Shown: piece after piece, positions 400-27,739 of the stretch
Layout of the letters: each line of letters opens with the position of its first letter
Numbering within the stretch: position 1 is the first letter of the stretch
Sequence record: OL436245.1
DNA: 64,000 nucleotides
Strand: one strand, 5' to 3'
From: Staphylococcus phage vB_SurM-PSU4
The notes under the pieces: generated by a model
Seen by the model: only the letters and a program-made list of their open reading frames with translations
The model's database searches: none
Told to the model about the DNA's origin: nothing
Program-made: the position numbers and the translations under genes

Positions 400-1716
400 T
401 TATTCCTCTTCTTCTTCTTCTTCTGTTTGTTCTTCTTCTGTTTGTTCTTCTTGATATTGTTCTTGAGATTGTTCTGTTTGTTGTTCTTGAGATTGTTCTG
501 TTTGTTGTTCTTGAGATTGTTCTGTTTGTTGTTCTTGAGATTGTTCTTTAATTGCAGGTTCTAAAGGTACCATTGGAATAACTTCATTAGGTATTACAGG
601 TTCTAAAGGTACCATAGGTTGTTCTTGAGATTGTTCTGTTTGTTGTTCTTGAGATTGTTCTGTTTGTTGTTCTTGAGATTGTTCTTTAATTGCAGGTTCT
701 AAAGGTACCATTGGAATAACTTCATTAGGTATTGCAGGTTCTAAAGGTACCATAGGTTGTTCTTGTACTTTATTAGAAGATTCTAAAGTTACATCAGGTT
801 TTCTATATGGTACATTATTGTCATCTTCAATAGGTTGTTGAGGTTCTATAGGAACAAAAGACTCTGGAACTGTTTGATTATCTGTAGTATCTTGAGGTAC
901 CGTAGGTTCTTCCACAGGGTCTTGAGGTTCTATTGGTGTGTTAGGAAGAATTGGTTGTTCTATAGGTTTTTCAGATAAATTAGGTTGTTGTACTTGAGGA
1001 ACTTCGGGTGTTATAGGTTGTTGTACTTCTGGTTGTGCTTGAGGAACTTGTGGTTGCTCTACAGATGTAACAGGAGGTGCTTCTCCTTGATTATTACCTT
1101 GTGGTGGAACAATTGGTTCATTTTGTACTTGATTTCCTACAGGGTTACTTTGAGTTGGTTCTGTAGGTGTTGTAGGTGTATTATTAACACTTTCTACAAT
1201 ATCCTGTTCAGAACTATTTAAATCTTTACTATCTCCTTGTATTCCTTCTATAACTTTTTCCTTATCTATCTTATCTAACATACCTTTAGGAACTTCTACT
1301 TTCCCTATTCCGTCATCCCCTTGCACAATTCTAGGTTTATCAATCTTACTATTCTCTTTAATATCTTTACTAATTAGAACTAAGTCATCATACTTAGAGG
1401 AACCTTCATTATATTTATCTAATTGCTTATTCTGTTCTTTGGTACTTAATTCATTAAAACCTTTATAATTTGTTTCCTTCTTAACCTTTTTGATTTCTTC
1501 TTTCGCTTGACTTAATTTCTTAGCATAATTCTCAGAAATTTTATCATCTTTCTTATCTTCTTCTTTATAAATTTCTATTGTTCTTTCTTTTTCTTGTATC
1601 TCGTTTTGATACTCTTTGACTTGTTGATAGAAGATAATGAAACCAATCATAATTAAGATGATAAAGAATATAAAAATATTTAAGATTAAACTTTTACCAC
1701 TCTCTTTATTTTTCAT
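400..1716 (-). CDS. Membrane-anchored repetitive Pro/Gln/Glu-rich protein (N-terminal TM helix, coiled-coil, long low-complexity C-terminal repeats)
   Basis: 438-aa ORF with an N-terminal hydrophobic segment (LILNIFIFFIILIMIGFIIF), a K/E-rich coiled-coil, and PQ-rich and EQSQEQQT tandem repeats ending in a poly-E tail. Confidence 0.6.
   Translation of the reverse strand: MKNKESGKSLILNIFIFFIILIMIGFIIFYQQVKEYQNEIQEKERTIEIYKEEDKKDDKISENYAKKLSQAKEEIKKVKKETNYKGFNELSTKEQNKQLDKYNEGSSKYDDLVLISKDIKENSKIDKPRIVQGDDGIGKVEVPKGMLDKIDKEKVIEGIQGDSKDLNSSEQDIVESVNNTPTTPTEPTQSNPVGNQVQNEPIVPPQGNNQGEAPPVTSVEQPQVPQAQPEVQQPITPEVPQVQQPNLSEKPIEQPILPNTPIEPQDPVEEPTVPQDTTDNQTVPESFVPIEPQQPIEDDNNVPYRKPDVTLESSNKVQEQPMVPLEPAIPNEVIPMVPLEPAIKEQSQEQQTEQSQEQQTEQSQEQPMVPLEPVIPNEVIPMVPLEPAIKEQSQEQQTEQSQEQQTEQSQEQQTEQSQEQYQEEQTEEEQTEEEEEEE
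430..780. repeat. Intragenic tandem DNA repeats (24-nt unit ttgttcttgagattgttctgtttg in several copies, plus a ~100-nt unit repeated twice)
   Basis: Direct repeats visible at 451-560 and 631-700 (24-mers). The longer unit at ~537-640 recurs at ~675-778. At protein level these encode the QTEQSQEQ and MVPLEPAIPNEVIP repeats. Confidence 0.7.
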
Positions 1717-3546: not shown

Positions 3547-4118
3547 CGTTACTACCGTCACTTTCGTGATATTTATATACGGACTAGACTATATCATATT
3601 CCTTATTTTTGACTAAGGAATCTCTACTTTACAGGTCGTTAACCTTCTCTTATAGTTCTACCTTACCTCATTTAGTAAGTTACCTATAAACTTAGTCGTT
3701 AGGCATTTATCTACTTTGTAGAATTTAGCAATTGATTGCCCTCATCTTTACATGTTAGGGGTTTCCAATTTTAGTAGAGTTATTCGATATACATTACTGT
3801 ATAAAGGGGCTATCCCGCTAACCCAGCGTGTAGTTGTAGAACAATTGAGTTGATTCAGTATTCATTTCTTTTTCTTTTAATTCACTAGCTGAAATCCAAC
3901 ATTTTTTTGTTACGATTGAGTTCGTTATTCTCAACCTTCTATATATCGCTATATAAGTTCAGACTATATCTTTACCTTATCAAATGAGACTTAGGTATCC
4001 TCTGTTTCGTGCTACTTAGCACTACTAATTAGTCGTTGCACGTTCTCTTATTACAAGAGCTTCGCTCATGATTATCTCTAATGAGAGACTTCCCATGAAT
4101 TAAAAGGACTTCACTCTA
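3547..4118 (-). mobile_element. ORF-less group I intron region in terL containing two P7-like cores; probably two introns flanking a cryptic ~100-nt micro-exon (~3821-3922)
   Basis: Two copies of the caacgacta...gatatagtct (P7 5'/3') motif pair are present. Between them, an open frame of 35 codons (NSIVTKKCWISASELKEKEMNTESTQLFYNYTLG) begins exactly at the predicted intron end. The same arrangement is seen in the tail-tube gene. Confidence 0.5.
3821..3922 (-). CDS. terL: Candidate terL micro-exon (cryptic, <60 aa, not in ORF track)
   Basis: The frame is open only in the exon-compatible phase. It is bounded by a ...gagaataacg intron-3'-like end and a gcccctttatacag intron-5'-like sequence. Inference only. 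Confidence 0.35.
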
Positions 4119-5691: not shown

Positions 5692-5997
5692 AGCCCCACG
5701 ATTTAACATAGGGGTACTCCAACGTCTTATAACCTTGAAAGGTGAACTTGACATTGATTCCATTGCTGATGATTCTGATGATGAAGGTACTCTATCATAT
5801 TCATCCAGTGACAAATAATCAATATCCACACCTTCTAAAGCTTTAGGTGTAGAACTTGTTCTAAAGAACATACTTGAATTTCTTATTTGTTTATATTTTA
5901 ATGAGTCATTATCTTGGTTAATGATGCTTGCAAAATAAGGTTGTTGCAATGTAGGGTTTATCCTACTTTGTACGAATTTCTGCATTTGGTCACTGGT
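5692..5997 (-). CDS. terL: Terminase large subunit exon (contains IDYLSLDEYD Walker-B-like motif); boundaries approximate
   Basis: ORF 5689-6000. A hhhhDE Walker B-like motif is followed by a Ser/Thr-rich segment. The exon is followed directly by an intron starting TAACAAAG. Confidence 0.6.
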
Positions 5998-7318
5998 CAT
6001 TTTTACCCCTAGTTTCCTAGTATTTAAAGGGATTAGACTATATCATAAGAATACATTTATATATTTAAATACGGACTGTATTCTTCTCTGCTTTACTTCC
6101 TAATAAGTATTTATCTTTTAAGTCTTCTAAGTAATTTATAAGTTTTATTCCTGCTATTGTGTAAGGTATTCTAATCATCTCAATGTTATTATCTTTAGCG
6201 TACTTATTTTTTATATCATCTCTTATTTGTTGCTTTTTGAAGGCTTCTAAACCTCCAAAATATTCTATAGGTTCATAATGTTGTTTCCCATCATATTCAA
6301 TAAAAAGCCCATTCTCACCATAATCAGGTATATAAAAATCAAACTTTAAAATGTTAATATATCTACAATCCTCAAATGATTTTTGAAACTCATATATTAT
6401 ACCTTCATCTTTTAAAAATCCCGCTATTATATCTTCGCCATTAGAAATACTACTACATTGAGGGCATCCTGTTAACCTTAAAACATGATTAGGTTCAGCT
6501 TTAAAAACACATTTACACTCATTACATTGGAAAGATGTTTTAGTATGAGTATTTACATAATCACCTATCAAACTTATTTTACCTTTGTGAAAATACTCTA
6601 ATTGTTCTTGAACAACATCTATCTTCTTACGTTGAGATTCTTTAACATTTTCTATGATACATTGAGGACATACATTCTTCCTTCTTTTACTTATCATATT
6701 TATAGGTGTATTATAAAAATAAAAATCATGTACATTACATTTTAATTTTATACTTTCCGAATATCCTGTATATTCACCAATAACAGAAATATTATTATTG
6801 TACTTTTTATTTATCTCATCTTTAAACGTATCTGTTGTTTTAATTCTTTTTTGATTATCACAATAATAACATCTACTATTTCCTGTTAGGAAATTATTTG
6901 GTTTTACAGACCATTCATTACCACAAATGTTATGTTTCATAAGTATTTTATCTCTAGTTCTTGTATACTTACCAATAACTGTGTATTCATTACCTACTAA
7001 ATCATATATTTCTCGTTCAAATTCTTCTTGTGTTTTCTTTTTAGACATTCTTATCCCCCTTTCTTATCTTTTTATACTTATTAGGTTTTCTTATACTATT
7101 TTCGTTATCTCCATTCAGATAACTATTAGTAAGTTTAGTCGTTAGACATTTATCCTAACATTACTATATCATATATAAATATAGTTGTCAAGAATTTAGT
7201 ACGGTAGGTTCCCACTATCTGTGTATAGTCAGAGTTAGGGTTTCTTACCAGTATATTGTTTATCTATACATTATTTTACTATGCCCGTTTAACAGAGTTT
7301 TAGTTCCCCACTCTGTTA
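5998..7318 (-). mobile_element. Group I intron in terL carrying a homing-endonuclease ORF
   Basis: The intron starts TAACAGAG directly after the exon codon ...ATGAAA. Its 3' end reads gatatagtctaatccctttaaatactaggaaactaggggtaaaaatg, and the 327-aa ORF sits inside. Confidence 0.65.
6065..7048 (-). CDS. Intron-encoded homing endonuclease (CxxC zinc-ribbon repeats plus Vsr/DUF559-like nuclease motif), paralog of 4562-5455
   Basis: Several CxxC/CPxC zinc-ribbon modules are followed by the C-terminus FIEYDGKQHYEPIEYFGG...QQIRDDIKNKY...MIRIPYT. Confidence 0.65.
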   Translation of the reverse strand: MSKKKTQEEFEREIYDLVGNEYTVIGKYTRTRDKILMKHNICGNEWSVKPNNFLTGNSRCYYCDNQKRIKTTDTFKDEINKKYNNNISVIGEYTGYSESIKLKCNVHDFYFYNTPINMISKRRKNVCPQCIIENVKESQRKKIDVVQEQLEYFHKGKISLIGDYVNTHTKTSFQCNECKCVFKAEPNHVLRLTGCPQCSSISNGEDIIAGFLKDEGIIYEFQKSFEDCRYINILKFDFYIPDYGENGLFIEYDGKQHYEPIEYFGGLEAFKKQQIRDDIKNKYAKDNNIEMIRIPYTIAGIKLINYLEDLKDKYLLGSKAEKNTVRI

Positions 7319-7473
7319 TTTCATAGGGAACGTGAACATACACTTGACAGAATCTTTACTATGTGTATCTGCAAAATGCAACATCTTATTGTATCCAACT
7401 TCACTTAATCCAAGTTGTCTCGATTTAAGTACTGCTATGTTAGGGTGTTTATCATTTATTATGGCAATCTGCC
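7319..7473 (-). CDS. terL: Candidate cryptic terL exon (~51 aa) with Walker-A-like SRQLGLS motif; not in ORF track
   Basis: The minus-strand translation is GQIAIINDKHPNIAVLKSRQLGLSEVGYNKMLHFADTHSKDSVKCMFTFPMK. It is flanked upstream by an intron 3'-end motif (...ctaggggtataaaacg) and downstream by TAACAGAG. SRQLG resembles the T4 gp17-type Walker A region. Confidence 0.45.
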
Positions 7474-7734
7474 CGTTTTATACCCCTAGTTTCCTAGTAT
7501 TTAAAGGGTTTGGACTATCTCATAGTTACTAATTTAGGTAAGTAACCCTCTTCTGTTACTTCTCTTAAAAAGAGCTTTCTTATACTGTTCTACACTCAAC
7601 CATTTATGAGCTTACCAGTAATTTTAGTCTCTAGGCATTTATGACTTATTAAGCCAATTTAGCAATTGATTGTCCTCGTCTTTACGTTAGGAGTTTCCAA
7701 TTTTAAGAAGAGTTTAAAGACCACAGCAAATTTA
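7474..7734 (-). mobile_element. ORF-less group I intron in terL (between exon 1 and the cryptic exon)
   Basis: It contains the same family motifs as the other terL introns (aattggaaactcctaacgtaaagacgaggacaatcaattgctaaatt ... gagatagtccaaaccctttaaatactaggaaactaggggtataaaacg). Confidence 0.5.
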
Positions 7735-7935
7735 TGGTCTATGAGCTTGAGCTTTACTTTTATCTCTATTTGGTATAGAAAAAGTAATATTATGCCCACG
7801 AATTAAATTGTGTTTCAACATATAAGCAGTAGTACTAGACATTGTTAATACATAATCTAATTGTTCTTGGGTAACATTTGTAGTTCCATATGTGGATATG
7901 AGTAAGTCTTTTAATTGTTTTCCATCCATTTTCAT
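7735..7935 (-). CDS. terL: Terminase large subunit, first exon (N-terminus); 3' boundary approximate
   Basis: The ATG at 7935 directly follows the stop of the upstream gene. The ORF closes at 7732 with TAA, and TAAATTTGC resembles the UAAC-type intron starts seen elsewhere in the gene. Confidence 0.5.
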
Positions 7936-7937
7936 AA

Positions 7938-10151: not shown

Positions 10152-10355
10152 ATGATAGAGATAACTATGATTAGCGGAAAGATATATTATAAAAAAATGG
10201 AACAAAGTACAGAGAGAAGTAATGTAGGAGATATGCAAAAACTAATGTCAGGTAAGGGTAATGCTGTAGAAGCATACAGCACTGAAAGTTTTAACCAAGA
10301 AGATAAAGTATTTCTAAGTCCTTTTAATATTGAATCATTCCGTATTATCTTGTAA
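10152..10355 (+). CDS. Hypothetical small protein
   Basis: 67-aa ORF with an AGGAGA RBS. Confidence 0.4.
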   Translation: MIEITMISGKIYYKKMEQSTERSNVGDMQKLMSGKGNAVEAYSTESFNQEDKVFLSPFNIESFRIIL

Positions 10356-10373
10356 TATGTTAAGTAAGTAAGT

Positions 10374-10403
10374 AAGGGTAATTAAGTTTACCCTTATTTT
10401 TTT
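10374..10403 (+). terminator. Rho-independent terminator
   Basis: aagggtaa-ttaag-ttaccctt hairpin followed by a T-run. Confidence 0.6.
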
Positions 10404-10471
10404 ATATATTTTTACTTGCTAGAGAGAAAAAAGTATGATATAGTGTGAATATATAGAAAAATATAGTTAAT

Positions 10472-10500
10472 TTGATTTTACAAATTAGTAAAAGTATGAT
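10472..10500 (+). promoter_or_regulatory. Sigma-A-like promoter (TTGATT-17-TATGAT) reading into the ORF-less region
   Basis: The -35 element TTGATT is at 10472-10477 and the -10 element TATGAT at 10495-10500, with 17-nt spacing. A similar aaaagtatgatata element lies ~50 nt upstream. Confidence 0.45.
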
Positions 10501-11326
10501 ATACTATATTTAGTTAGAAATACATAACAATTAAATAAAGAGCTGATGAGTACACATAATGGTGAGATGTGTAGGAATAGCGACATTGAGGAAGTTAAAT
10601 CGGAGCTTCGAGCATCACCATGAAAATTCGATGGGTATATATGTAAATAAATAGTACAATGGTGCATATATTTCCAGATTTGGTGATGACTACCAATGTA
10701 CTAAAAAGGTCAGGGAGGTTTCTTGTTGTGCTTTGCACAGGGGAGCCTTGTTCCCATATACAGACTTCACGAGGGGCGGTAGCTATCCCCTCTTTAAACA
10801 TTATAACTAAAGGCTAAACGAAGTAGTATAGGTTGTTAGGACAAGAATTAACGTAAAACAAGGTTAGCACTAGACCGTAATCTATACATATTTTATACAC
10901 TATGATTATATCTTTCTAGTTACAATTCTGTTGTACCTAGGGGATAAGTCTACCCGTAATGCTACGCAAACCTAAACCAATAAAACACAAAACAAATAAC
11001 CTAAATAATTAATAACTTATTATTTACTGTAGACTTATCTAATAACTAAATAAATTAAATAATAAATATATAGACTTAAAAAAGAGAATAAGATATATAA
11101 CAAATTAGAGAGTATATAGAAAGTAACTAAATAATATATACAGTAAAATAAATAAATATACATAATATATAATTAAACTTAAAAGTATATAAATATATTA
11201 ATTTAAGTAAGTGATTGTAGTGAAGAATTAGAGCGAATCTTTATAACTTAATTATATACATATACATACATAAATATTTAGATATACTGGATAAATTAAT
11301 TTAGTATATATTTTTTTATATAAGTG

Positions 11327-11355
11327 TTGACATATTACGATTTATAAGATATAGT
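11327..11355 (+). promoter_or_regulatory. Strong sigma-A-like promoter (TTGACA-17-TATAGT)
   Basis: Consensus -35 element TTGACA at 11327-11332 and -10 element at 11350-11355, in an AT-rich tract. Confidence 0.5.
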
Positions 11356-11396
11356 TAAACTATACTAATTATTCAAGATATTAATTAAAAAAGTTA

Positions 11397-11425
11397 TTGA
11401 CAAACACTAATCAATATATTATAAT
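11397..11425 (+). promoter_or_regulatory. Strong sigma-A-like promoter (TTGACA-17-TATAAT) for the 11465 gene
   Basis: Perfect consensus -35 (11397-11402) and -10 (11420-11425) hexamers ~40 nt upstream of the RBS/ATG. Confidence 0.55.
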
Positions 11426-11464
11426 TAGATATATAAAATAAATTAAAGAAAAGGAAATGATAAT

Positions 11465-11674
11465 ATGAAAAAACAAGTAATGGTTTATAGTAAATTAGAA
11501 TGTCAAGAATGCGGAACTGATTTAAGTATTCCTAGAAAAAGAGCTAAGAAAAGAAGTGAAGGACACATTAAACATATGTATTGTCCTACATGCCAATCAA
11601 CAACAGGATTTGTAGAAACAAATAAAGATAAGTCATATGATTTTTGGGAACAATGGCAAGCACAATTTAACTAA
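11465..11674 (+). CDS. Small zinc-ribbon protein (CQEC...CPTC)
   Basis: 69-aa ORF with two CxxC pairs, driven by consensus early-type promoters. Confidence 0.5.
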   Translation: MKKQVMVYSKLECQECGTDLSIPRKRAKKRSEGHIKHMYCPTCQSTTGFVETNKDKSYDFWEQWQAQFN

Positions 11675-11688
11675 GGAGATGATAAAAG

Positions 11689-11991
11689 ATGAGTAACTAT
11701 ACAAGACATGGACAGAAAAGAATACGTAAAAGACAAGGTGTTAAAAAAAGTAATTTAGAAGATGAAATAGATAAAGTGTTAGATGAAGGGTTAAGTCATG
11801 GAGACTGTAAAGGAAAACTTAAGAAATACTTAGACAGATTATGGTTTAGTCATAAGAGTGGTTACTTCAGAGTATATAAATCTAACATTTATATATTTGA
11901 CTTTAATACAGATAGGTTAATTACAATGTATGCTCTTCCTGGACACTTAAATAAGATATATCAACAATGTTTAAAAAAGAAGTCAATTTGA
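11689..11991 (+). CDS. Hypothetical basic protein
   Basis: 100-aa ORF with an AGGAGA RBS, co-transcribed with 11465-11674. Confidence 0.45.
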   Translation: MSNYTRHGQKRIRKRQGVKKSNLEDEIDKVLDEGLSHGDCKGKLKKYLDRLWFSHKSGYFRVYKSNIYIFDFNTDRLITMYALPGHLNKIYQQCLKKKSI

Positions 11992-12139
11992 TTTTGTAGA
12001 AATGGACTTATGTGTTATAATGTACTTAAGTAGTTGATATACACTACTTAAACCACATACCCACCCTAAGTTCAGAGGGATTAAGTTCTCTCTGTTCATA
12101 CATAAATATTAGTGTATTGAAAGCACTTGTTATAATGAC

Positions 12140-12310
12140 TGAATAATGGTTTGGTATCCATAAGGTATAAGATAATCAAACGAACTAAAACTTATCGGAG
12201 ACATAATGCTCCACTAGTAGGTAACTTACTGGAAGGAGCTACAATTGTAATCGGTAGGATGAGTCGTCATTAGTATTGTTTAATACGATTGGTATACTTG
12301 GTACTTGATT
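12140..12310 (+). pseudogene. Decayed fragment of an endolysin SH3b cell-wall-binding domain
   Basis: The stretch 12205-12249 (aatgctccactagtaggtaacttactggaaggagctacaattgta) is ~80% identical to the lysin gene at ~15735-15780 (aatgctccagtaggaggtaacttaccagcaggggctacaattgta). The translation NAPLVGNLLEGATIV matches [15 protein letters not shown] and is followed by a stop. Weaker similarity extends upstream. Confidence 0.5.
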
Positions 12311-13424
12311 ATAAGGACTGTAGAGTATGATAACAGCTAGAGTTTAACTTCTTCTTAGGGTCTTAGCGGAATCCTATGAAGATACGCTATAACGACTTCT
12401 TGTAGTTGGAGCACAGAAATGTGTTTGATAATAGAGGTTATCAGTACAAGTAGCATAAATCTACATTTCAAAAGATATATTTGGTAAATATAAAAGTGAA
12501 ACCAAATAAATTATTTCTTCAACCATGTGAACGTTACTAACTATTATGTTAGTATCACATTATCCTTTTGGATTGCGTGAGATGGACTTAAGGTAGCTCC
12601 TTAATAGAGTCAATCGTAGTGATTCACTTAATAACAGGTCTTATAATCAGGTTCTCGGTGAGACGAGTTATAACAAGTGCTTTGATTACATTAGTAATCT
12701 AATAACAATAATTCCTTCGTTTTATTCCTTACATTTTTTATTGTTATATTAAGTCTTAGGTATATGAAAAGATATTGTAGTTATCAAAATTTAAATCATA
12801 TAAATCCTCCTTTCCCTTTGTTTTTTTGTATAGATTCATTCTACAGACAAATCGAAGTAATATACCTATAAACCCACTTTAAATAATTAGTATGGATGAA
12901 TAGTGGGCTCCATACTATACATAAACATTTTAACATATGACTGTTTTTTTAGACCTTACCCTGTTTTCCAGTATAAAACAATAACTAATGGTAAGGGTAT
13001 ATTTGAAATTTAGACTTTTCATTAAGTCTTTCCGTTCGTGAAAAATGATTGAGGGTTTTGAGAGTTCCCCTTGGCTAACAATAACTCTCTTTATATCCCT
13101 TAATTGTGTAAAACATGAGAGATACCATGTCATTAGGGAGTTTCGGCTGGTAACTTCTTCCAGTCCAGTATCTAAATAGCTTATGGTGAGCGTATACGTC
13201 AGAAAAGACGTTAAAAACTTAGGATGACATTGACTGAGTAGGAATAATATGTTACTCGATTTCCCCACACGAGTATAAATAAGCATTGGGGAGCATACAT
13301 AATAGTAATTGATATTGCCCCTGTTTCAATCTTTATCAATTCTTTTTTACATATATTAAAAGGATAAAATTATATGAATGTATAGGAAATTACATATAAC
13401 TTATCTGATGAGAGGGGATTTAAT

Positions 13425-13661
13425 ATGGATAAACAATTACCTAAGTTTAGTATATTTAAAGTAACTAAATATAAAAAAGTTTCTGATATTCAAGTAGATA
13501 ACTCGAAAGAAGAAGGAAATGTTTCTATATCAAAAGAAGAATATTACTTTAGCACTAAAGAATTAGCACAGAAATATATTAGTCAATATAAATATGTAAT
13601 TAATATTGATTGTAAATTAAAAGAAATAAAAGTGAATGAGGAAGTTATTTTAAATGGCTAG
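13425..13661 (+). CDS. Hypothetical protein
   Basis: 78-aa ORF with an AGAGGGG RBS. Confidence 0.45.
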   Translation: MDKQLPKFSIFKVTKYKKVSDIQVDNSKEEGNVSISKEEYYFSTKELAQKYISQYKYVINIDCKLKEIKVNEEVILNG

Positions 13662-13914: not shown

Positions 13915-14436
13915 GTGTCAAAAGATACTAACCAGAAAAAACCTAAAGTATTTTTAGGTCAAAACTTATCTACACGTGTACGTAGTCCTTATTTTTGGAC
14001 AGGTGTTGTAGGTATTTTAGGTAGTGCAGTTGTATCATTCGGTGGATTAATAGGTGTAGACTTATCAGCTCAAGTAGATAATGTCACAGCTAACTCAAGT
14101 AAAATTATTGAGTTTATTTTCTTAATCCTTGGATTGTTAGGTGTTTCAGTAGACCCTAATAGTAAAGGTAGAAAAGATAGTGAGATTGTGAGAACTAGTT
14201 ACAAAAAACCTAGAAATGATAAAGACCCTAACGAATTTGTTCAATGGCAAGAAAATGCAAAACAAACAAGTGCTTTTGAGATAGACGAATACGAAAACAA
14301 TGCAGAGCCTGATACAGATGATAGTGATGAAGTACTTGCTATCGAAGATGAGATTGATGGGGGCTCAGCACCTTCTCAAGAGGAAGAAGATACTGAGGAA
14401 CATGGTAAAGTATTTGCAGAGGATGAAGTTAAGTAA
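13915..14436 (+). CDS. Holin
   Basis: 173-aa protein with two predicted TM helices and a charged C-terminus. It starts at GTG with an AGGAGTG RBS and ends overlapping the endolysin start (ATGA). Confidence 0.7.
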
Positions 14437-15923
14437 TGACTAAGACTCAAGCAGAAATAAATAAACGTTTAGATGCTTACGCAAAAGGAACAGTAGATAG
14501 CCCTTATAGAGTTAAGAAAGCAACAAGTTATGACCCTAGTTTTGGTGTTATGGAAGCAGGAGCTATTGATGTAGATAAATATTACCACGCTCAATGTCAA
14601 GACCTTATTACAGACTATGTATTATGGCTAACAGATAATAAAGTTAGAACTTGGGGTAATGCTAAAGACCAAATCAAACAAAGTTACGGTACTGGATTTA
14701 AAATACACCAAAATAAACCTTCTACAGTACCTAAAAAAGGTTGGATTGCAGTATTTACAGGTGGTAGTTATTCACAGTGGGGTCATATAGGTATTGTATA
14801 TGATGGAGGTAATACTTCAACATTTACTATTTTAGAGCAAAACTGGAACGGTTACGCTAATAAAAAACCTACAAAACGTGTAGATAATTATTACGGATTA
14901 ACTCATTTCATCGAAATACCTTTAAAAGCAGGAACTACTGTTAAAAAAGAAACAGCTAAGAAAAGTGCAAGTAAAACACCCGAACCTAAAAAGAAAGCAA
15001 CATTAAAAGTTTCTAAGAATCATATTAACTATACAATGGCTAAACGTGGTAAAAAACCTGAAGGCATGGTAATACACAACGATGCGGGTCGTTCTTCAGG
15101 ACAACAATATGAGAATTCATTAGCTAAAGCAGGTTATGCTAGGTATGCTAATGGTATTGCTCATTACTACGGTTCTGAAGGTTATATATGGGAAGCAATA
15201 GATGCTAAGAATCAAATTGCTTGGCACACAGGTGATGGAACAGGAGCAAACTCAGGTAACTTTAGATTTGCAGGTATTGAAGTCTGTCAATCAATGAGTG
15301 CTAGTGATGCTCAATTCCTTAAAAATGAACAAGCAGTATTCCAATTTACAGCAGAAAAATTTAAAGAGTGGGGTATTACGCCTAACCGTAAAAGTGTAAG
15401 ATTACACATGGAATTCGTTCCTACTGCGTGCCCTCACCGTTCAATGGTTCTTCATACAGGATTTAATCCAGTAACTCAAGGAAGACCATCACAAGCAATA
15501 ATGAATAAACTAAAAGATTATTTCATTAAACAAATTAAAAACTACATGGATAAAGGCACTTCAAGTTCTACTGTAGTTAAAAAAGGTAAAACAAGTAGTG
15601 CAAGTACACCAGCAACTAGACCAGTTGTAGGTTCTTGGAAAAAGAACCAGTACGGAACTTGGTATAAACCAGAAAATGCAACATTTGTTAATGGTAACCA
15701 ACCTATAGTAACTAGAATAGGTTCTCCATTCTTAAATGCTCCAGTAGGAGGTAACTTACCAGCAGGGGCTACAATTGTATATGACGAAGTTTGTATCCAA
15801 GCAGGTCATATTTGGATAGGTTATAATGCTTATAACGGTAACAGAGTATATTGCCCTGTTAGAACATGTCAAGGTGTTCCACCAAACCATATACCAGGAG
15901 TTGCCTGGGGTGTATTTAAATAG
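14436..15923 (+). CDS. Endolysin, LysK-like: N-terminal CHAP, central amidase_2 (N-acetylmuramoyl-L-alanine amidase) and C-terminal SH3b cell-wall-binding regions
   Basis: 495-aa ORF whose regions were assigned by eye: a CHAP-like segment ([12 protein letters not shown] ... SQWGHIGIV), an amidase_2-like segment (MVIHNDAG...[11 protein letters not shown]) and an SH3b-like C-terminus. The length and order match phage K LysK. No intron is evident. Confidence 0.9.
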
Positions 15924-26974: not shown

Positions 26975-27275
26975 TAACTAAATAGACCCCTTGTACAGTG
27001 ATGTGCATTGAATAATACTTTAAATTGCTAGAACACCGTAAAGCTAACTTAACCACATAGGAATTGGAAACGATAAACTAGAAGGTCAGGAAACTAGAAA
27101 AAATAAGTTAGATGGTATATGGTTAAAACCTAAGTACTAATTAATCGGAAATTAGCATCGAAGCTCCTGTAAAATGGAGAACGTTCAACGACTATAATAA
27201 GTGAGTCTTAGTTACAATAAGATTATGGAATAGTCTAGTCCGTATATAAATATTGCGAAAGCAACGGTAGAATCG
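26975..27275 (+). mobile_element. ORF-less group I intron 1 in tail-tube gene
   Basis: It begins TAACTAAATAGACCCC like the terL introns. It contains gagaacgttcaacgactataa (P7 5') and ggaatagtctagtccgtatataaat (P7 3'), and ends ...ggtagaatcG. Exon 1 + exon 2 then read YHG-C-SANNY in frame. Confidence 0.65.
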
Positions 27276-27352
27276 GTTCAGCGAATAACTATGATGAAGA
27301 GATAAACACGAACGAAATGATAACTGAGAGCATAGAGTTTTCTTATCTTACA
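27276..27352 (+). CDS. Tail tube protein, micro-exon 2 (encodes CSANNYDEEINTNEMITESIEFSYLT)
   Basis: The frame is open only in the phase created by splicing from 26974. The peptide matches my recollection of the phage K tail tube C-terminal region. The exact 3' end is ambiguous within ~3 nt. Confidence 0.6.
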
Positions 27353-27616
27353 GCATTAAATTTCTAGTGCCCTTATACAGTAATGTATATTGAATAAATC
27401 CTCTAATTCAGGGAAACCCTAAACGAAATTAAGACGTAGGCAATCCTGAGCTAAGCCTGTAACATACAGGAAAGTGCAACGACTATCTCTACGGAGAGTA
27501 CGCTCAAGTGAGTGGAAATGGGGATTATCCTATAAAGTATAGGATAGTGATATAGTCTGGACATATATGGAAACATATAGAAGGTTAGGAGTAACGAACC
27601 TAATCGTAACACAATC
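27353..27616 (+). mobile_element. ORF-less group I intron 2 in tail-tube gene (or non-spliced 3' intron relic)
   Basis: gcccttatacagtaatgtatattgaataa...ggaaaccctaa...ggcaatc...gtgcaacgactat...gatatagtctgg is closely similar to the 3' half of terL intron 3. If spliced, the C-terminus becomes ...YLTADKAS*. If not, the protein ends ...YLTALNF* at 27367. Confidence 0.5.
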
Positions 27617-27634
27617 GCAGATAAAGCATCATAA
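27617..27634 (+). CDS. Tail tube protein, putative terminal mini-exon 3 (ADKAS-stop)
   Basis: gca gat aaa gca tca taa lies immediately upstream of a strong terminator. It matches the recalled K-like C-terminus ...SDKARQ. Inference. Confidence 0.4.
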   Translation, partial: ADKAS

Positions 27635-27648
27635 TAATTTAGTATACT

Positions 27649-27688
27649 TAAACCCAACTTTTATTGTTGGGTTTATTTTTTTTTAATT
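27649..27688 (+). terminator. Rho-independent terminator after tail-tube gene
   Basis: aaacccaac-ttttatt-gttgggttt hairpin followed by T11. Confidence 0.7.
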
Positions 27689-27689
27689 T

Positions 27690-27725
27690 GCTTTATCAGA
27701 AGCAGTATGTTATAATATAAATATA
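27690..27725 (+). promoter_or_regulatory. Promoter of the free-standing homing endonuclease gene (TTGCTT ... TGTTATAAT)
   Basis: A -35-like TTGCTT and an extended -10 TGtTATAAT are followed by an AAGGAGA RBS and the ATG at 27740. Confidence 0.5.
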
Positions 27726-27739
27726 AGGAGATGATATAA

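Follow-up and report, generated by a model that had tools for sequence, protein, structure and literature searches.

A conserved non-coding RNA locus, probably including a divergent relative of ROOL RNA, in an ORF-poor region of Staphylococcus phage vB_SurM-PSU4

Staphylococcus phage vB_SurM-PSU4, a Twort-like myovirus (Herelleviridae, Twortvirinae), contains a region of about 3 kb that is poor in open reading frames (ORFs) at positions 10356-13424 of the 64,000-nucleotide (nt) stretch analysed here (record OL436245.1; this whole stretch is called the window). We propose that the region is very probably a non-coding locus of control elements and RNAs that is conserved among the Twort-like phages of staphylococci. 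Its main element would be a large structured RNA, encoded at 12107-12696, that is an ortholog of the long non-coding RNA lncRNA2 of Kayvirus and a relative of the ROOL RNA family.

Genes and features of the region

The features discussed in the text are the following.

10370-10399, plus strand: terminator-like hairpin with T-run, called by the terminator scan; it ends the upstream gene block.
10472-10505, plus strand: overlapping promoter-like sites from the promoter scan, pointing into element A.
10523-10978, plus strand: element A, a candidate structured RNA of ~450 nt, recognised by profile match; its 5' domain is 10542-10754.
10990-11440, no strand assigned: AT-rich stretch of 13-17.5% GC in the composition profile, counterpart of the proposed phage K origin.
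11465-11674, plus strand: gene for a small zinc-finger protein (phrog_1257, E 7.5e-25).
11689-11991, plus strand: small gene of 100 amino acids (aa), function not assigned (phrog_16724, E 3.9e-51).
12013-12060, plus strand: extended -10 box TGTTATAAT and leader hairpin (hairpin at ~12028-12060), read from the sequence.
12107-12696, plus strand: ROOL-like large structured RNA of ~590 nt, delimited by an inverted repeat, a 15-sequence alignment, an Rfam ROOL match and mapping to phage K.
12205-12249, plus strand: 45-nt insertion from an endolysin SH3b coding region, in the terminal loop of helix 5.
12303-12652, plus strand: core and 3' domains of the RNA, enclosed by helix 7 (ROOL model positions 171-537).
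12457-12524, plus strand: AU-rich variable linker, which the ROOL alignment puts at the linker of that family; a 4-bp helix (12453-12456 with 12525-12528) closes it.
12594-12598, plus strand: loop UAGCU of helix 16, within the GGUnGCUCC hairpin in common with ROOL.
12697-13306, plus strand: variable stretch free of tRNA genes, an indel mosaic among relatives.
13307-13348, plus strand: AT-rich hairpin (AATTGATA with TATCAATT) followed by CTTTTTT, read from the sequence.

Over 10356-13424 the nearest relatives are the Baoshanvirus phages phiSA_BS1/BS2, Golestan101-M, RSM-J51Sa and JDF86, with 89-92% identity. Two credible genes lie in the region, at 11465-11674 and 11689-11991, and in five related genomes the same two small genes and nothing more are annotated in the homologous region. 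A preliminary description, made from the letters and a list of ORFs, had stated that apart from these two genes there is no plausible ORF of at least 60 aa on either strand. The scarcity of supported genes holds, but three mechanical ORFs of that length are present on the minus strand (10485-10667, 60 aa; 10595-10801, 68 aa; 12930-13286, 118 aa). None of the three has a PHROG match, and the longest crosses 13050-13263, which is absent or diverged in relatives. Related phages, in which intact conserved ORFs had been envisaged as a sign of local sequencing errors, have no intact ORFs here, and the homologous Kayvirus region, rather than being silent, is heavily transcribed (PMC7698491, PMC9241854, PMC11598898).

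The gene upstream of the region, the last of its block (10152-10355), resembles phage K gp190 (34% identity, E 2e-8). The product of 11465-11674 is 47% identical to phage K gp191 (E 2e-23), which is annotated as 'ribosome associated inhibitor A; zinc finger domain', and a gp191-like gene lies 5' of the RNA in every examined Twortvirinae genome with an annotated locus. A homolog of the gene at 11689-11991 is annotated in the Baoshanvirus relatives.

Homology with Kayvirus lncRNA2

The 540-nt core of the main RNA (12132-12671) has counterparts at ~75-92% identity in 244 records of Staphylococcus phages, a number that rises to 317 with more distant matches; most of the records listed carry no annotation over this interval and a few carry hypothetical proteins. 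The RNA region maps to positions 38032-38568 of phage K, with 76% identity across the whole element and the same fold. A comparison with Kayvirus, which the preliminary description had called for, thus places homologous sequence at the same genomic position, and on this evidence we regard the RNA of 12107-12696 as the ortholog of Kayvirus lncRNA2.

A long non-coding transcript has been reported at the Kayvirus locus in three independent RNA-seq studies (PMC7698491, PMC9241854, PMC11598898). In vB_SauM-515A1, lncRNA2 extends over 38,000-38,525, has an early promoter, contributes 8.4% of counts and increases 45-fold in the course of infection (PMC7698491). The phage K transcript sits between gp191 and the tRNAs (PMC9241854); there lncRNA2 was placed at 38,024-38,566 and makes up, together with lncRNA1, 27% of reads, and its role was given as unknown in late 2024 (PMC11598898). 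Kayvirus lncRNA2 is a transcript with an early promoter that accumulates throughout infection and is the most abundant phage transcript. In the published reports we found neither a secondary-structure model of Kayvirus lncRNA2 nor a demonstrated family assignment.

Compared with Kayvirus lncRNA2, the RNA of the window has an entirely different closing-helix sequence, a putative promoter ~90 nt further upstream and no tRNA genes downstream; it carries the 45-nt insertion derived from the endolysin gene lysK and lacks a 36-nt hairpin insertion of phage K. This lineage-specific hairpin insertion (36-38 nt, columns 487-522 of our alignment A3) lies between helices 14 and 15 and is found in phage K, PG-2021_9, Remus and qdsa001, and is absent from the window.

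The gene order around the RNA is conserved as well. A zinc-finger gene, ~1 kb of non-coding DNA, tRNAs where present, a small ORF, the holin and the lysin follow each other in Kayvirus, Silviavirus and Twortvirus. In Sepunavirus the same order was traced up to the holin, and in Sciuriunavirus the gene at the zinc-finger position and the RNA were traced. Baoshanvirus shares this order, with one additional small gene 5' of the RNA. The RNA thus has one and the same location in each of the six Twortvirinae groups that were sampled.

No homolog of lncRNA1 was found in the window. The 3' part of lncRNA1 of 515A1 (slice 1231-1367, minus strand) scores 43.4 bits against the Rfam family DUF3800-I, with a gathering threshold of 44.2 (E 3.3e-5).

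Consensus fold

The main RNA is bracketed by a 29-nt inverted repeat whose arms, 12107-12135 and 12668-12693/12696, form the closing helix. In each genus an inverted repeat of 26-30 nt flanks ~480-530 nt, and its sequence differs between genera: in the window AAGCACTTGTTATAA pairs with TTATAACAAGTGCTT, in Kayvirus CTAAATATCTGAGCATA pairs with TATGCTTGGATATTTAG with G-U wobbles, and in Remus a perfect helix of 25 bp is made of yet another sequence.

The fold was obtained from a 15-sequence alignment (A3) as an RNAalifold consensus. Of the 142 pairs in this consensus, 89 have changed at both partners in a compensatory way, among them 14 in the closing helix (~24-29 bp) and 12 in the 19-bp helix 7 (12303-12321 with 12634-12652). 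Standard pairs amount to 97.4%, compared with 37-40% when the partners are slid by 1-3 columns; the compensatory pairs number 12-24 in these slid controls, and none of 500 shuffles was as good as the alignment. Helices 12 and 13 of the RNAalifold consensus were discarded in favour of a ROOL-type helix closing the linker, which covaries and is 100% paired in 15 of 15 sequences, with U-A in ten and C-G in five. A second count on the structure revised in this way gave 96.0% paired positions; taken together, the two counts give 36-40% in slid controls and 89-90 compensatory pairs over ~140 supported base pairs. As the sequences are related and the lineages few, these numbers are higher than that of the independent events; relatedness is the same in the slid controls, which nevertheless score far lower. 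The many invariant G-U pairs indicate that the plus strand is the RNA.

In outline, the RNA consists of the closing helix, a 5' domain with two hairpins, a core within the 19-bp helix, the AU-rich linker, which varies in sequence and length across lineages, and a 3' domain with the GGUnGCUCC hairpin. The loop of the latter hairpin (helix 16) is self-complementary in most lineages, mostly as AGCU, as UAGCUA in SEP1 and Remus and as UUGCAA in ZCSS1. Self-complementarity that persists despite sequence change is as expected for a contact between identical chains, and this loop may form an intermolecular kissing contact. The suggestion of the preliminary description that the region may encode structured non-coding RNAs is strongly supported: two RNAs, the main RNA and element A, have structures backed by covariation, and one of them is homologous to an abundant Kayvirus lncRNA.

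The same results bear on the idea that the ORF-free DNA acts mainly as DNA, as replication origin or packaging signal, and that the RNA structures are incidental. The extremely AT-rich stretch 10990-11440, with 13-17.5% GC and a position that matches the untranscribed proposed origin of phage K, would suit this explanation, but the explanation is applicable to the AT-rich part only, and even there the repeats are weak two-copy families. Both 12107-12696 and 10542-10754 show compensatory changes and invariant G-U pairs; the opposite strand, or DNA, would have A-C in their place. The Kayvirus ortholog, moreover, is the most abundant transcript. For the region as a whole we therefore consider a mainly DNA-level function improbable.

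Relation to ROOL and GOLLD

When a 611-nt slice (12095-12705) was scanned, the Rfam model of ROOL (RF03087) matched 12307-12648 with 52.7 bits and an E-value of 9.8e-10, over model positions 171-537 of 574. Rfam scans of the 64 kb and of 3.4 kb had returned no relevant match, a false negative caused by the search filters. The phage RNA and ROOL have in common the enclosing helix of 19 bp together with the helix that follows it, a hairpin capped by GAAA, GUACAAGUAGC, the AU-rich linker with its covarying closing helix, GUGAA(A/C)GUU, the GGUnGCUCC hairpin and AAUA.

Further comparisons support the relationship. The motif GTAYRAGTAGCAYAAAYCYRCA of the phage alignment was found in public collections in metagenome-assembled genomes of gut and rumen Bacilli and Clostridia, in mid-sized viral contigs and in Twort-like phages. 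Among the 19 loci with this motif that were scanned, 14 contain a full-length ROOL (136-203 bits) with the motif inside, and most adjoin tRNAs. With nhmmer, a profile of these 14 ROOLs matches SEP1 (E 5.7e-16) and, reciprocally, the phage profile matches a ROOL (E 2.9e-8).

In general architecture the RNA of the window also resembles ROOL: it has a length of ~550-600 nt, a long closing helix, a second long helix enclosing the core and 3' domains, an AU-rich variable linker with a short closing helix, the GGUnGCUCC hairpin and a phage context, and in relatives adjacent tRNAs and, for the Kayvirus ortholog, very high abundance. For the 5' part the likeness is one of architecture only, comprising the closing helix, a hairpin whose internal loop reads UGAA and a helix that encloses hairpins. 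While the 5' domain of ROOL has a hairpin with an internal loop followed by a helix enclosing three hairpins, the corresponding part of the RNA of the window has two hairpins. A covariance model of the 5' domain built from the 14 true ROOLs gave 5.5 bits (E 0.39) at the right place in the window and no significant match in eight relatives. Homology is therefore claimed for the core and 3' domains only.

Several points weigh against our interpretation and should be named together. The score of 52.7 bits is below the Rfam gathering threshold of 99.1, and scans of 3.4 kb or 64 kb miss the match altogether. The Rfam alignment does not reach the 5' third (model positions 1-170), where the 5'-domain model, as stated above, also gave no significant match. 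The ROOL core has two hairpins versus one in the RNA of the window, and unlike typical ROOL loci, the window has no tRNA genes. The independent lineages are few, and some of the covariation counts reflect shared ancestry. The promoter of the RNA is one that we infer, and promoter-like sites are not enriched. Transcription in the source phage is assumed from the Kayvirus ortholog, and oligomerisation and function would follow by analogy with ROOL. The RNA can thus be described as a compact, divergent ROOL relative, and not as a family member by the curated criterion.

ROOL forms an octameric RNA nanocage with a disordered internal linker (PMC12286853), that is, a closed homo-oligomer in which the linker lies inside (PMC12286853, PMC12515178). 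We hypothesize, with reservation, that the RNA of the window might assemble in a similar way into a closed homo-oligomer, a cage with the AU-rich linker inside. The self-complementary loop of helix 16 is an indirect hint in this direction. The RNA itself would be transcribed from the extended -10 box at 12013-12021 and would accumulate as a very stable transcript like its Kayvirus ortholog. It may then fold to a flat multi-domain monomer and close into a homo-oligomer like ROOL. The cage could sequester or scaffold something during infection, and candidates would be tRNAs or ribosomal components.

ROOL RNAs occur in phages and prophages of Firmicutes, whereas the RNA type of the window belongs to strictly lytic Staphylococcus myoviruses of 130-150 kb. 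A paper on phage K from 2022 noted that the lncRNA resembles GOLLD and ROOL by position and abundance only (PMC9241854), and a review of 2023 asserted sequence similarity to both, with data not shown. GOLLD, the other analogy in the Kayvirus literature, is likewise large, ornate, phage-borne, tRNA-associated and abundant, but differs in size and architecture, and its covariance model did not match 12095-12705 or 10470-11000 at E-values up to 10. In the literature searched, no published demonstration of a link between lncRNA2 and ROOL was found. While the main RNA as a Kayvirus transcript and ROOL as a family are already known, the link between the two, the covariation-supported fold and the compact, sub-threshold architecture appear to be new, as do the expansion segment derived from a coding gene and element A as a second RNA candidate.

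tRNA genes at the locus

tRNA genes follow the RNA in Kayvirus, Stab23 and Remus, and none are present in the window or in the other Baoshanvirus loci, where ARAGORN detected neither tRNA genes nor recognisable tRNA remnants. In phage Remus (slice 1405-1970) 3-4 nt separate the 3' arm of the closing helix from a downstream tRNA-Ser gene, and a transposase gene is next; this arrangement suggests that the 3' end of the Remus RNA could be set by RNase P processing.

Such an arrangement could mean that the RNA is a mere 5' leader or processing scaffold of a phage tRNA operon without a function of its own, the more so as the Kayvirus RNA precedes tRNA-Asp, tRNA-Phe and tRNA-Trp in one transcription unit. 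However, the Baoshanvirus phages, including that of the window, have kept the RNA with its full covarying structure without any tRNA at the locus, and this retention argues against a mere tRNA leader. Moreover, the downstream tRNAs of phage K are far less abundant than the RNA (PMC11598898), and ROOL, to which the RNA is related, exists and assembles alone. We consider this explanation quite improbable.

The 45-nt insertion

The stretch 12205-12249 was described in the preliminary account as a stop-interrupted relic of an endolysin SH3b region. The homology is real: the stretch agrees with the endolysin gene of the window (15735-15779) at 39 of 45 bases and with most Kayvirus lysK genes at 41 of 45 (91.1%, E 7e-9), and tblastn of the region aligns 15 aa at 73% identity with endolysin. 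What does not stand is its reading as a remnant of a lysis cassette, as the stretch is a recent insertion in the loop of an RNA hairpin.

The insertion sits on the stem of helix 5 (12192-12196 with 12258-12262), whose loop is the most variable of the 5' domain in the 15-sequence alignment. It is absent from phage K, 515A1 and phiSA_BS1 and is present in Stab23 with the same boundaries. Stab23 is also the only one of 244 records matching the insert flanks, and the only one of 50,697 phage records, that has the insertion; in the others of the 244, the 45 nt match the endolysin gene instead. It was not found in any of the loci retrieved, among them IMG/VR contigs with 99% identity to the window in element A, and its junction GCTACAATTGTAATCGGTAGG had no match in IMG/VR and metagenome contigs. 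The insertion thus occurs in two phages with different closing helices, which suggests spread by recombination within the RNA gene.

With the insertion, the hairpin folds as one extended stem-loop of -25.2 kcal/mol (z -4.8; Stab23 -22.7 kcal/mol), whereas within their lysK surroundings these 45 nt show no folding advantage over shuffled sequence (z +1.4). Stem pairs have arisen from base changes with respect to lysK, such as that of CCAG to CTGG. A plausible course of events is that a short templated copy of the phage's own endolysin gene, which lies 3.5 kb downstream, was placed in a loop that tolerates insertions and was then remodelled into an extended hairpin, that is, an expansion segment. 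Most likely, the 45-nt stretch is structurally tolerated and is not a lysin relic.

A function of the insertion itself is conceivable: on a highly abundant RNA, a mimic of part of the lysK mRNA might titrate a factor that acts on this mRNA, which could be a nuclease, an immune effector of the host or an antisense RNA. The insertion has the same sense as lysK on an RNA that is expected to be very abundant, it was kept in two phages with differing flanks, and its substitutions strengthen the hairpin and do not scramble it. But it is known from two genomes and is lacking in the closest relatives, it differs from any lysK at 4-6 of 45 positions, which weakens the mimicry, it occupies the most variable site of the 5' domain, and other lineages have unrelated insertions elsewhere in the RNA. 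We regard such a function as very unlikely. It is highly doubtful, too, that the locus combines a cage RNA, element A as a second RNA class and a domesticated endolysin-mRNA fragment tied to lysis control or to evasion of a host factor.

That the region is the graveyard of an earlier lysis cassette, with the intact downstream holin-lysin pair in its place, as the preliminary description had envisaged, is hardly credible: although the region lies directly upstream of the lysis genes and 12205-12249 is truly homologous to the SH3b coding region, this patch is the sole lysin or holin similarity in 10356-13424 (tblastn with LysK and holin; residues 434-448 the only match), it sits in a hairpin loop and is flanked on both sides by structured RNA conserved across Twortvirinae, and its absence from the closest relatives and from all records except Stab23 indicates a recent insertion and not an old remnant.

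The endolysin gene of the window (14436-15923) is a single intact ORF of 495 aa. In phage K and 515A1 the gene is split by an intron with an HNH endonuclease, and several Baoshanvirus records annotate it in pieces.

Implications

Two open questions are joined at this locus, the function of the ROOL nanocage and the role of abundant lncRNAs in therapeutic Kayvirus phages. If our interpretation as a ROOL-related RNA is true, ROOL biology would become testable in a lytic phage-host pair for which time-resolved RNA-seq and established hosts are available. Standard Rfam annotation misses this branch of ROOL, since its score lies below the threshold and the match is lost to filters at genome scale. 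The natural variants, with fewer peripheral hairpins, insertions at defined loops and presence or absence of tRNAs, indicate which parts of the fold are dispensable. The 45-nt coding fragment captured in an RNA loop is a clean natural example of the gain of an expansion segment, and element A is a further candidate RNA class for comparative study.

Element A and the AT-rich stretch

Element A is richer in GC and lies downstream of the terminator-like hairpin at 10370-10399 and the promoter-like sites at 10472-10505. For its 5' domain, 46 pairs are predicted, and across seven distinct sequences 95.9% of these positions are paired, compared with 38-46% in slid controls; 19 pairs are compensatory versus 1-4 in the controls. 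Its G-U pairs point to the plus strand. No reliable alignment was obtained for the 3' half, which is not the same in the different groups. Element A is found at the same locus in Baoshanvirus, at other loci in PG-2021 phages, Sepunavirus (phiIPLA-C1C and relatives) and Silviavirus CF5, and also in IMG/VR contigs that carry the ROOL-like RNA. A 531-nt slice (10470-11000) had no match in Rfam. We consider it likely that element A is a real structured RNA of an undescribed class.

Identity of element A with Kayvirus lncRNA1 was considered and rejected, as there was no convincing alignment and no profile match. The start of the element (10540-10585) consists of CUGANGAG, a covarying 7-bp stem and GGAAUAG, and its N position is U, A or C across homologs. 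This arrangement is similar to a hammerhead core; assignment as a hammerhead was rejected because no Rfam hammerhead model matches.

The AT-rich stretch follows element A and, like its counterpart in phage K (18-22% GC), lies between gp190-like and gp191-like genes, so that the flanking genes are syntenic in the two phages. In phage K, the sole untranscribed stretch, which also has the lowest GC content, was proposed as replication origin (PMC9241854). The stretch of the window resembles this proposed origin, a 450-bp AT-rich gap between gp190 and gp191, in having the same flanking genes and the lowest GC content nearby. It differs in that the gap is 1.1 kb long, because element A with its promoter separates the gp190-like gene from the AT-rich part. 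The repeats within the stretch are weak two-copy families of 21-26 nt, and no reliable iteron-like array was found. The stretch 10990-11440 may, by this analogy and with considerable doubt, be a replication origin; of the earlier suggestion that the region holds the origin, the AT-rich part remains plausible by synteny with phage K and the rest of the region does not.

Promoters and terminators

The preliminary description had placed promoters that point into the ORF-free stretches. The boxes are present, but promoter-like sites are no commoner in the region than in shuffled sequence (27 found versus 29.3 expected), so that promoters alone are not evidence, and two of the positions had to be corrected. 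The TGTTATAAT boxes lie at 12013-12021 and 12128-12136, and not at ~12018 and ~12125. The second box is located within the 5' arm of the closing helix. Because this arm, which starts at 12107, must be transcribed, the box at 12013-12021 was chosen as the probable promoter of the ROOL-like RNA, followed by a 5' leader. In Kayvirus and Silviavirus, the promoter is directly upstream of the 5' arm. In the leader hairpin region, 12028-12046 is 74% complementary over 19 nt to 12110-12128 of the 5' arm, and an alternative pairing during transcription is possible.

The sites at 10472-10505 comprise TTTACA and TATACT with TG, and TTGATT and TATGAT, each with a 17-nt spacer. Their sequence is kept in the Baoshanvirus relatives, and their status as promoters is that of a consensus match. 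At the end of the AT-rich stretch, two strong and probably early sigma-A-type promoters, at 11327-11355 (11 of 12 matches) and 11397-11425 (12 of 12), serve the small genes. At the other end of the region, the hairpin at 13307-13348 is likely a terminator in front of the promoter of the gene at 13425; it is kept in phiSA_BS1 and RSM-J51Sa, and the terminator scan did not call it because its stem has no G-C pairs.

The stretch downstream of the main RNA

The stretch 12697-13424 varies by indels even among close relatives, and in a comparison of 12690-13430 with Rfam the matches were at chance level only. The minus-strand arrangement of GGAGG, a 6-nt spacer and ATG ATT TAA pointed out in the preliminary description is indeed present, at 12797-12812. 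Its GGAGG is a strong Shine-Dalgarno sequence. On the plus strand this sequence reads AUCCUCCUUUC, which is like the tail at the 3' end of 16S rRNA. In Kayvirus, the stretch that separates lncRNA2 from tRNA-Asp, which is not homologous here, contains three CCTCC motifs, one of them as CACCTCCTTTC.

A hairpin at 12933-12993 (CCTTACC...GGTAAGG with inner TGTTTT...AAAACA) lies 3' of the RNA in the window, and a homologous piece lies 5' of lncRNA2 in phage K (slice 5699-5752), inside a short unit from promoter to terminator. A pseudoknotted motif of ~110 nt is found at 13197-13305 on the plus strand. It consists of a small hairpin of ACGUC with GACGU, followed by a second one, CUCG...CGAG, with UCCCCA in its loop; these loop bases pair with UGGGGA further downstream. 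A copy with 88.7% identity is located 5' of the terminase large subunit gene of the unrelated siphovirus SA2 (Sextaecvirus; slice ~1700-1832), and there the pseudoknot covaries (UCCCAC with GUGGGA). A Pistol ribozyme at 13254-13319 was rejected as a chance-level match, with 14.3 bits and an E-value of 6.8 compared with a gathering threshold of 34.5.

Elsewhere in the window, further stretches of 550-890 nt without an ORF of at least 80 aa on either strand lie at 3562-4115, 7049-7937 and 26986-27739.

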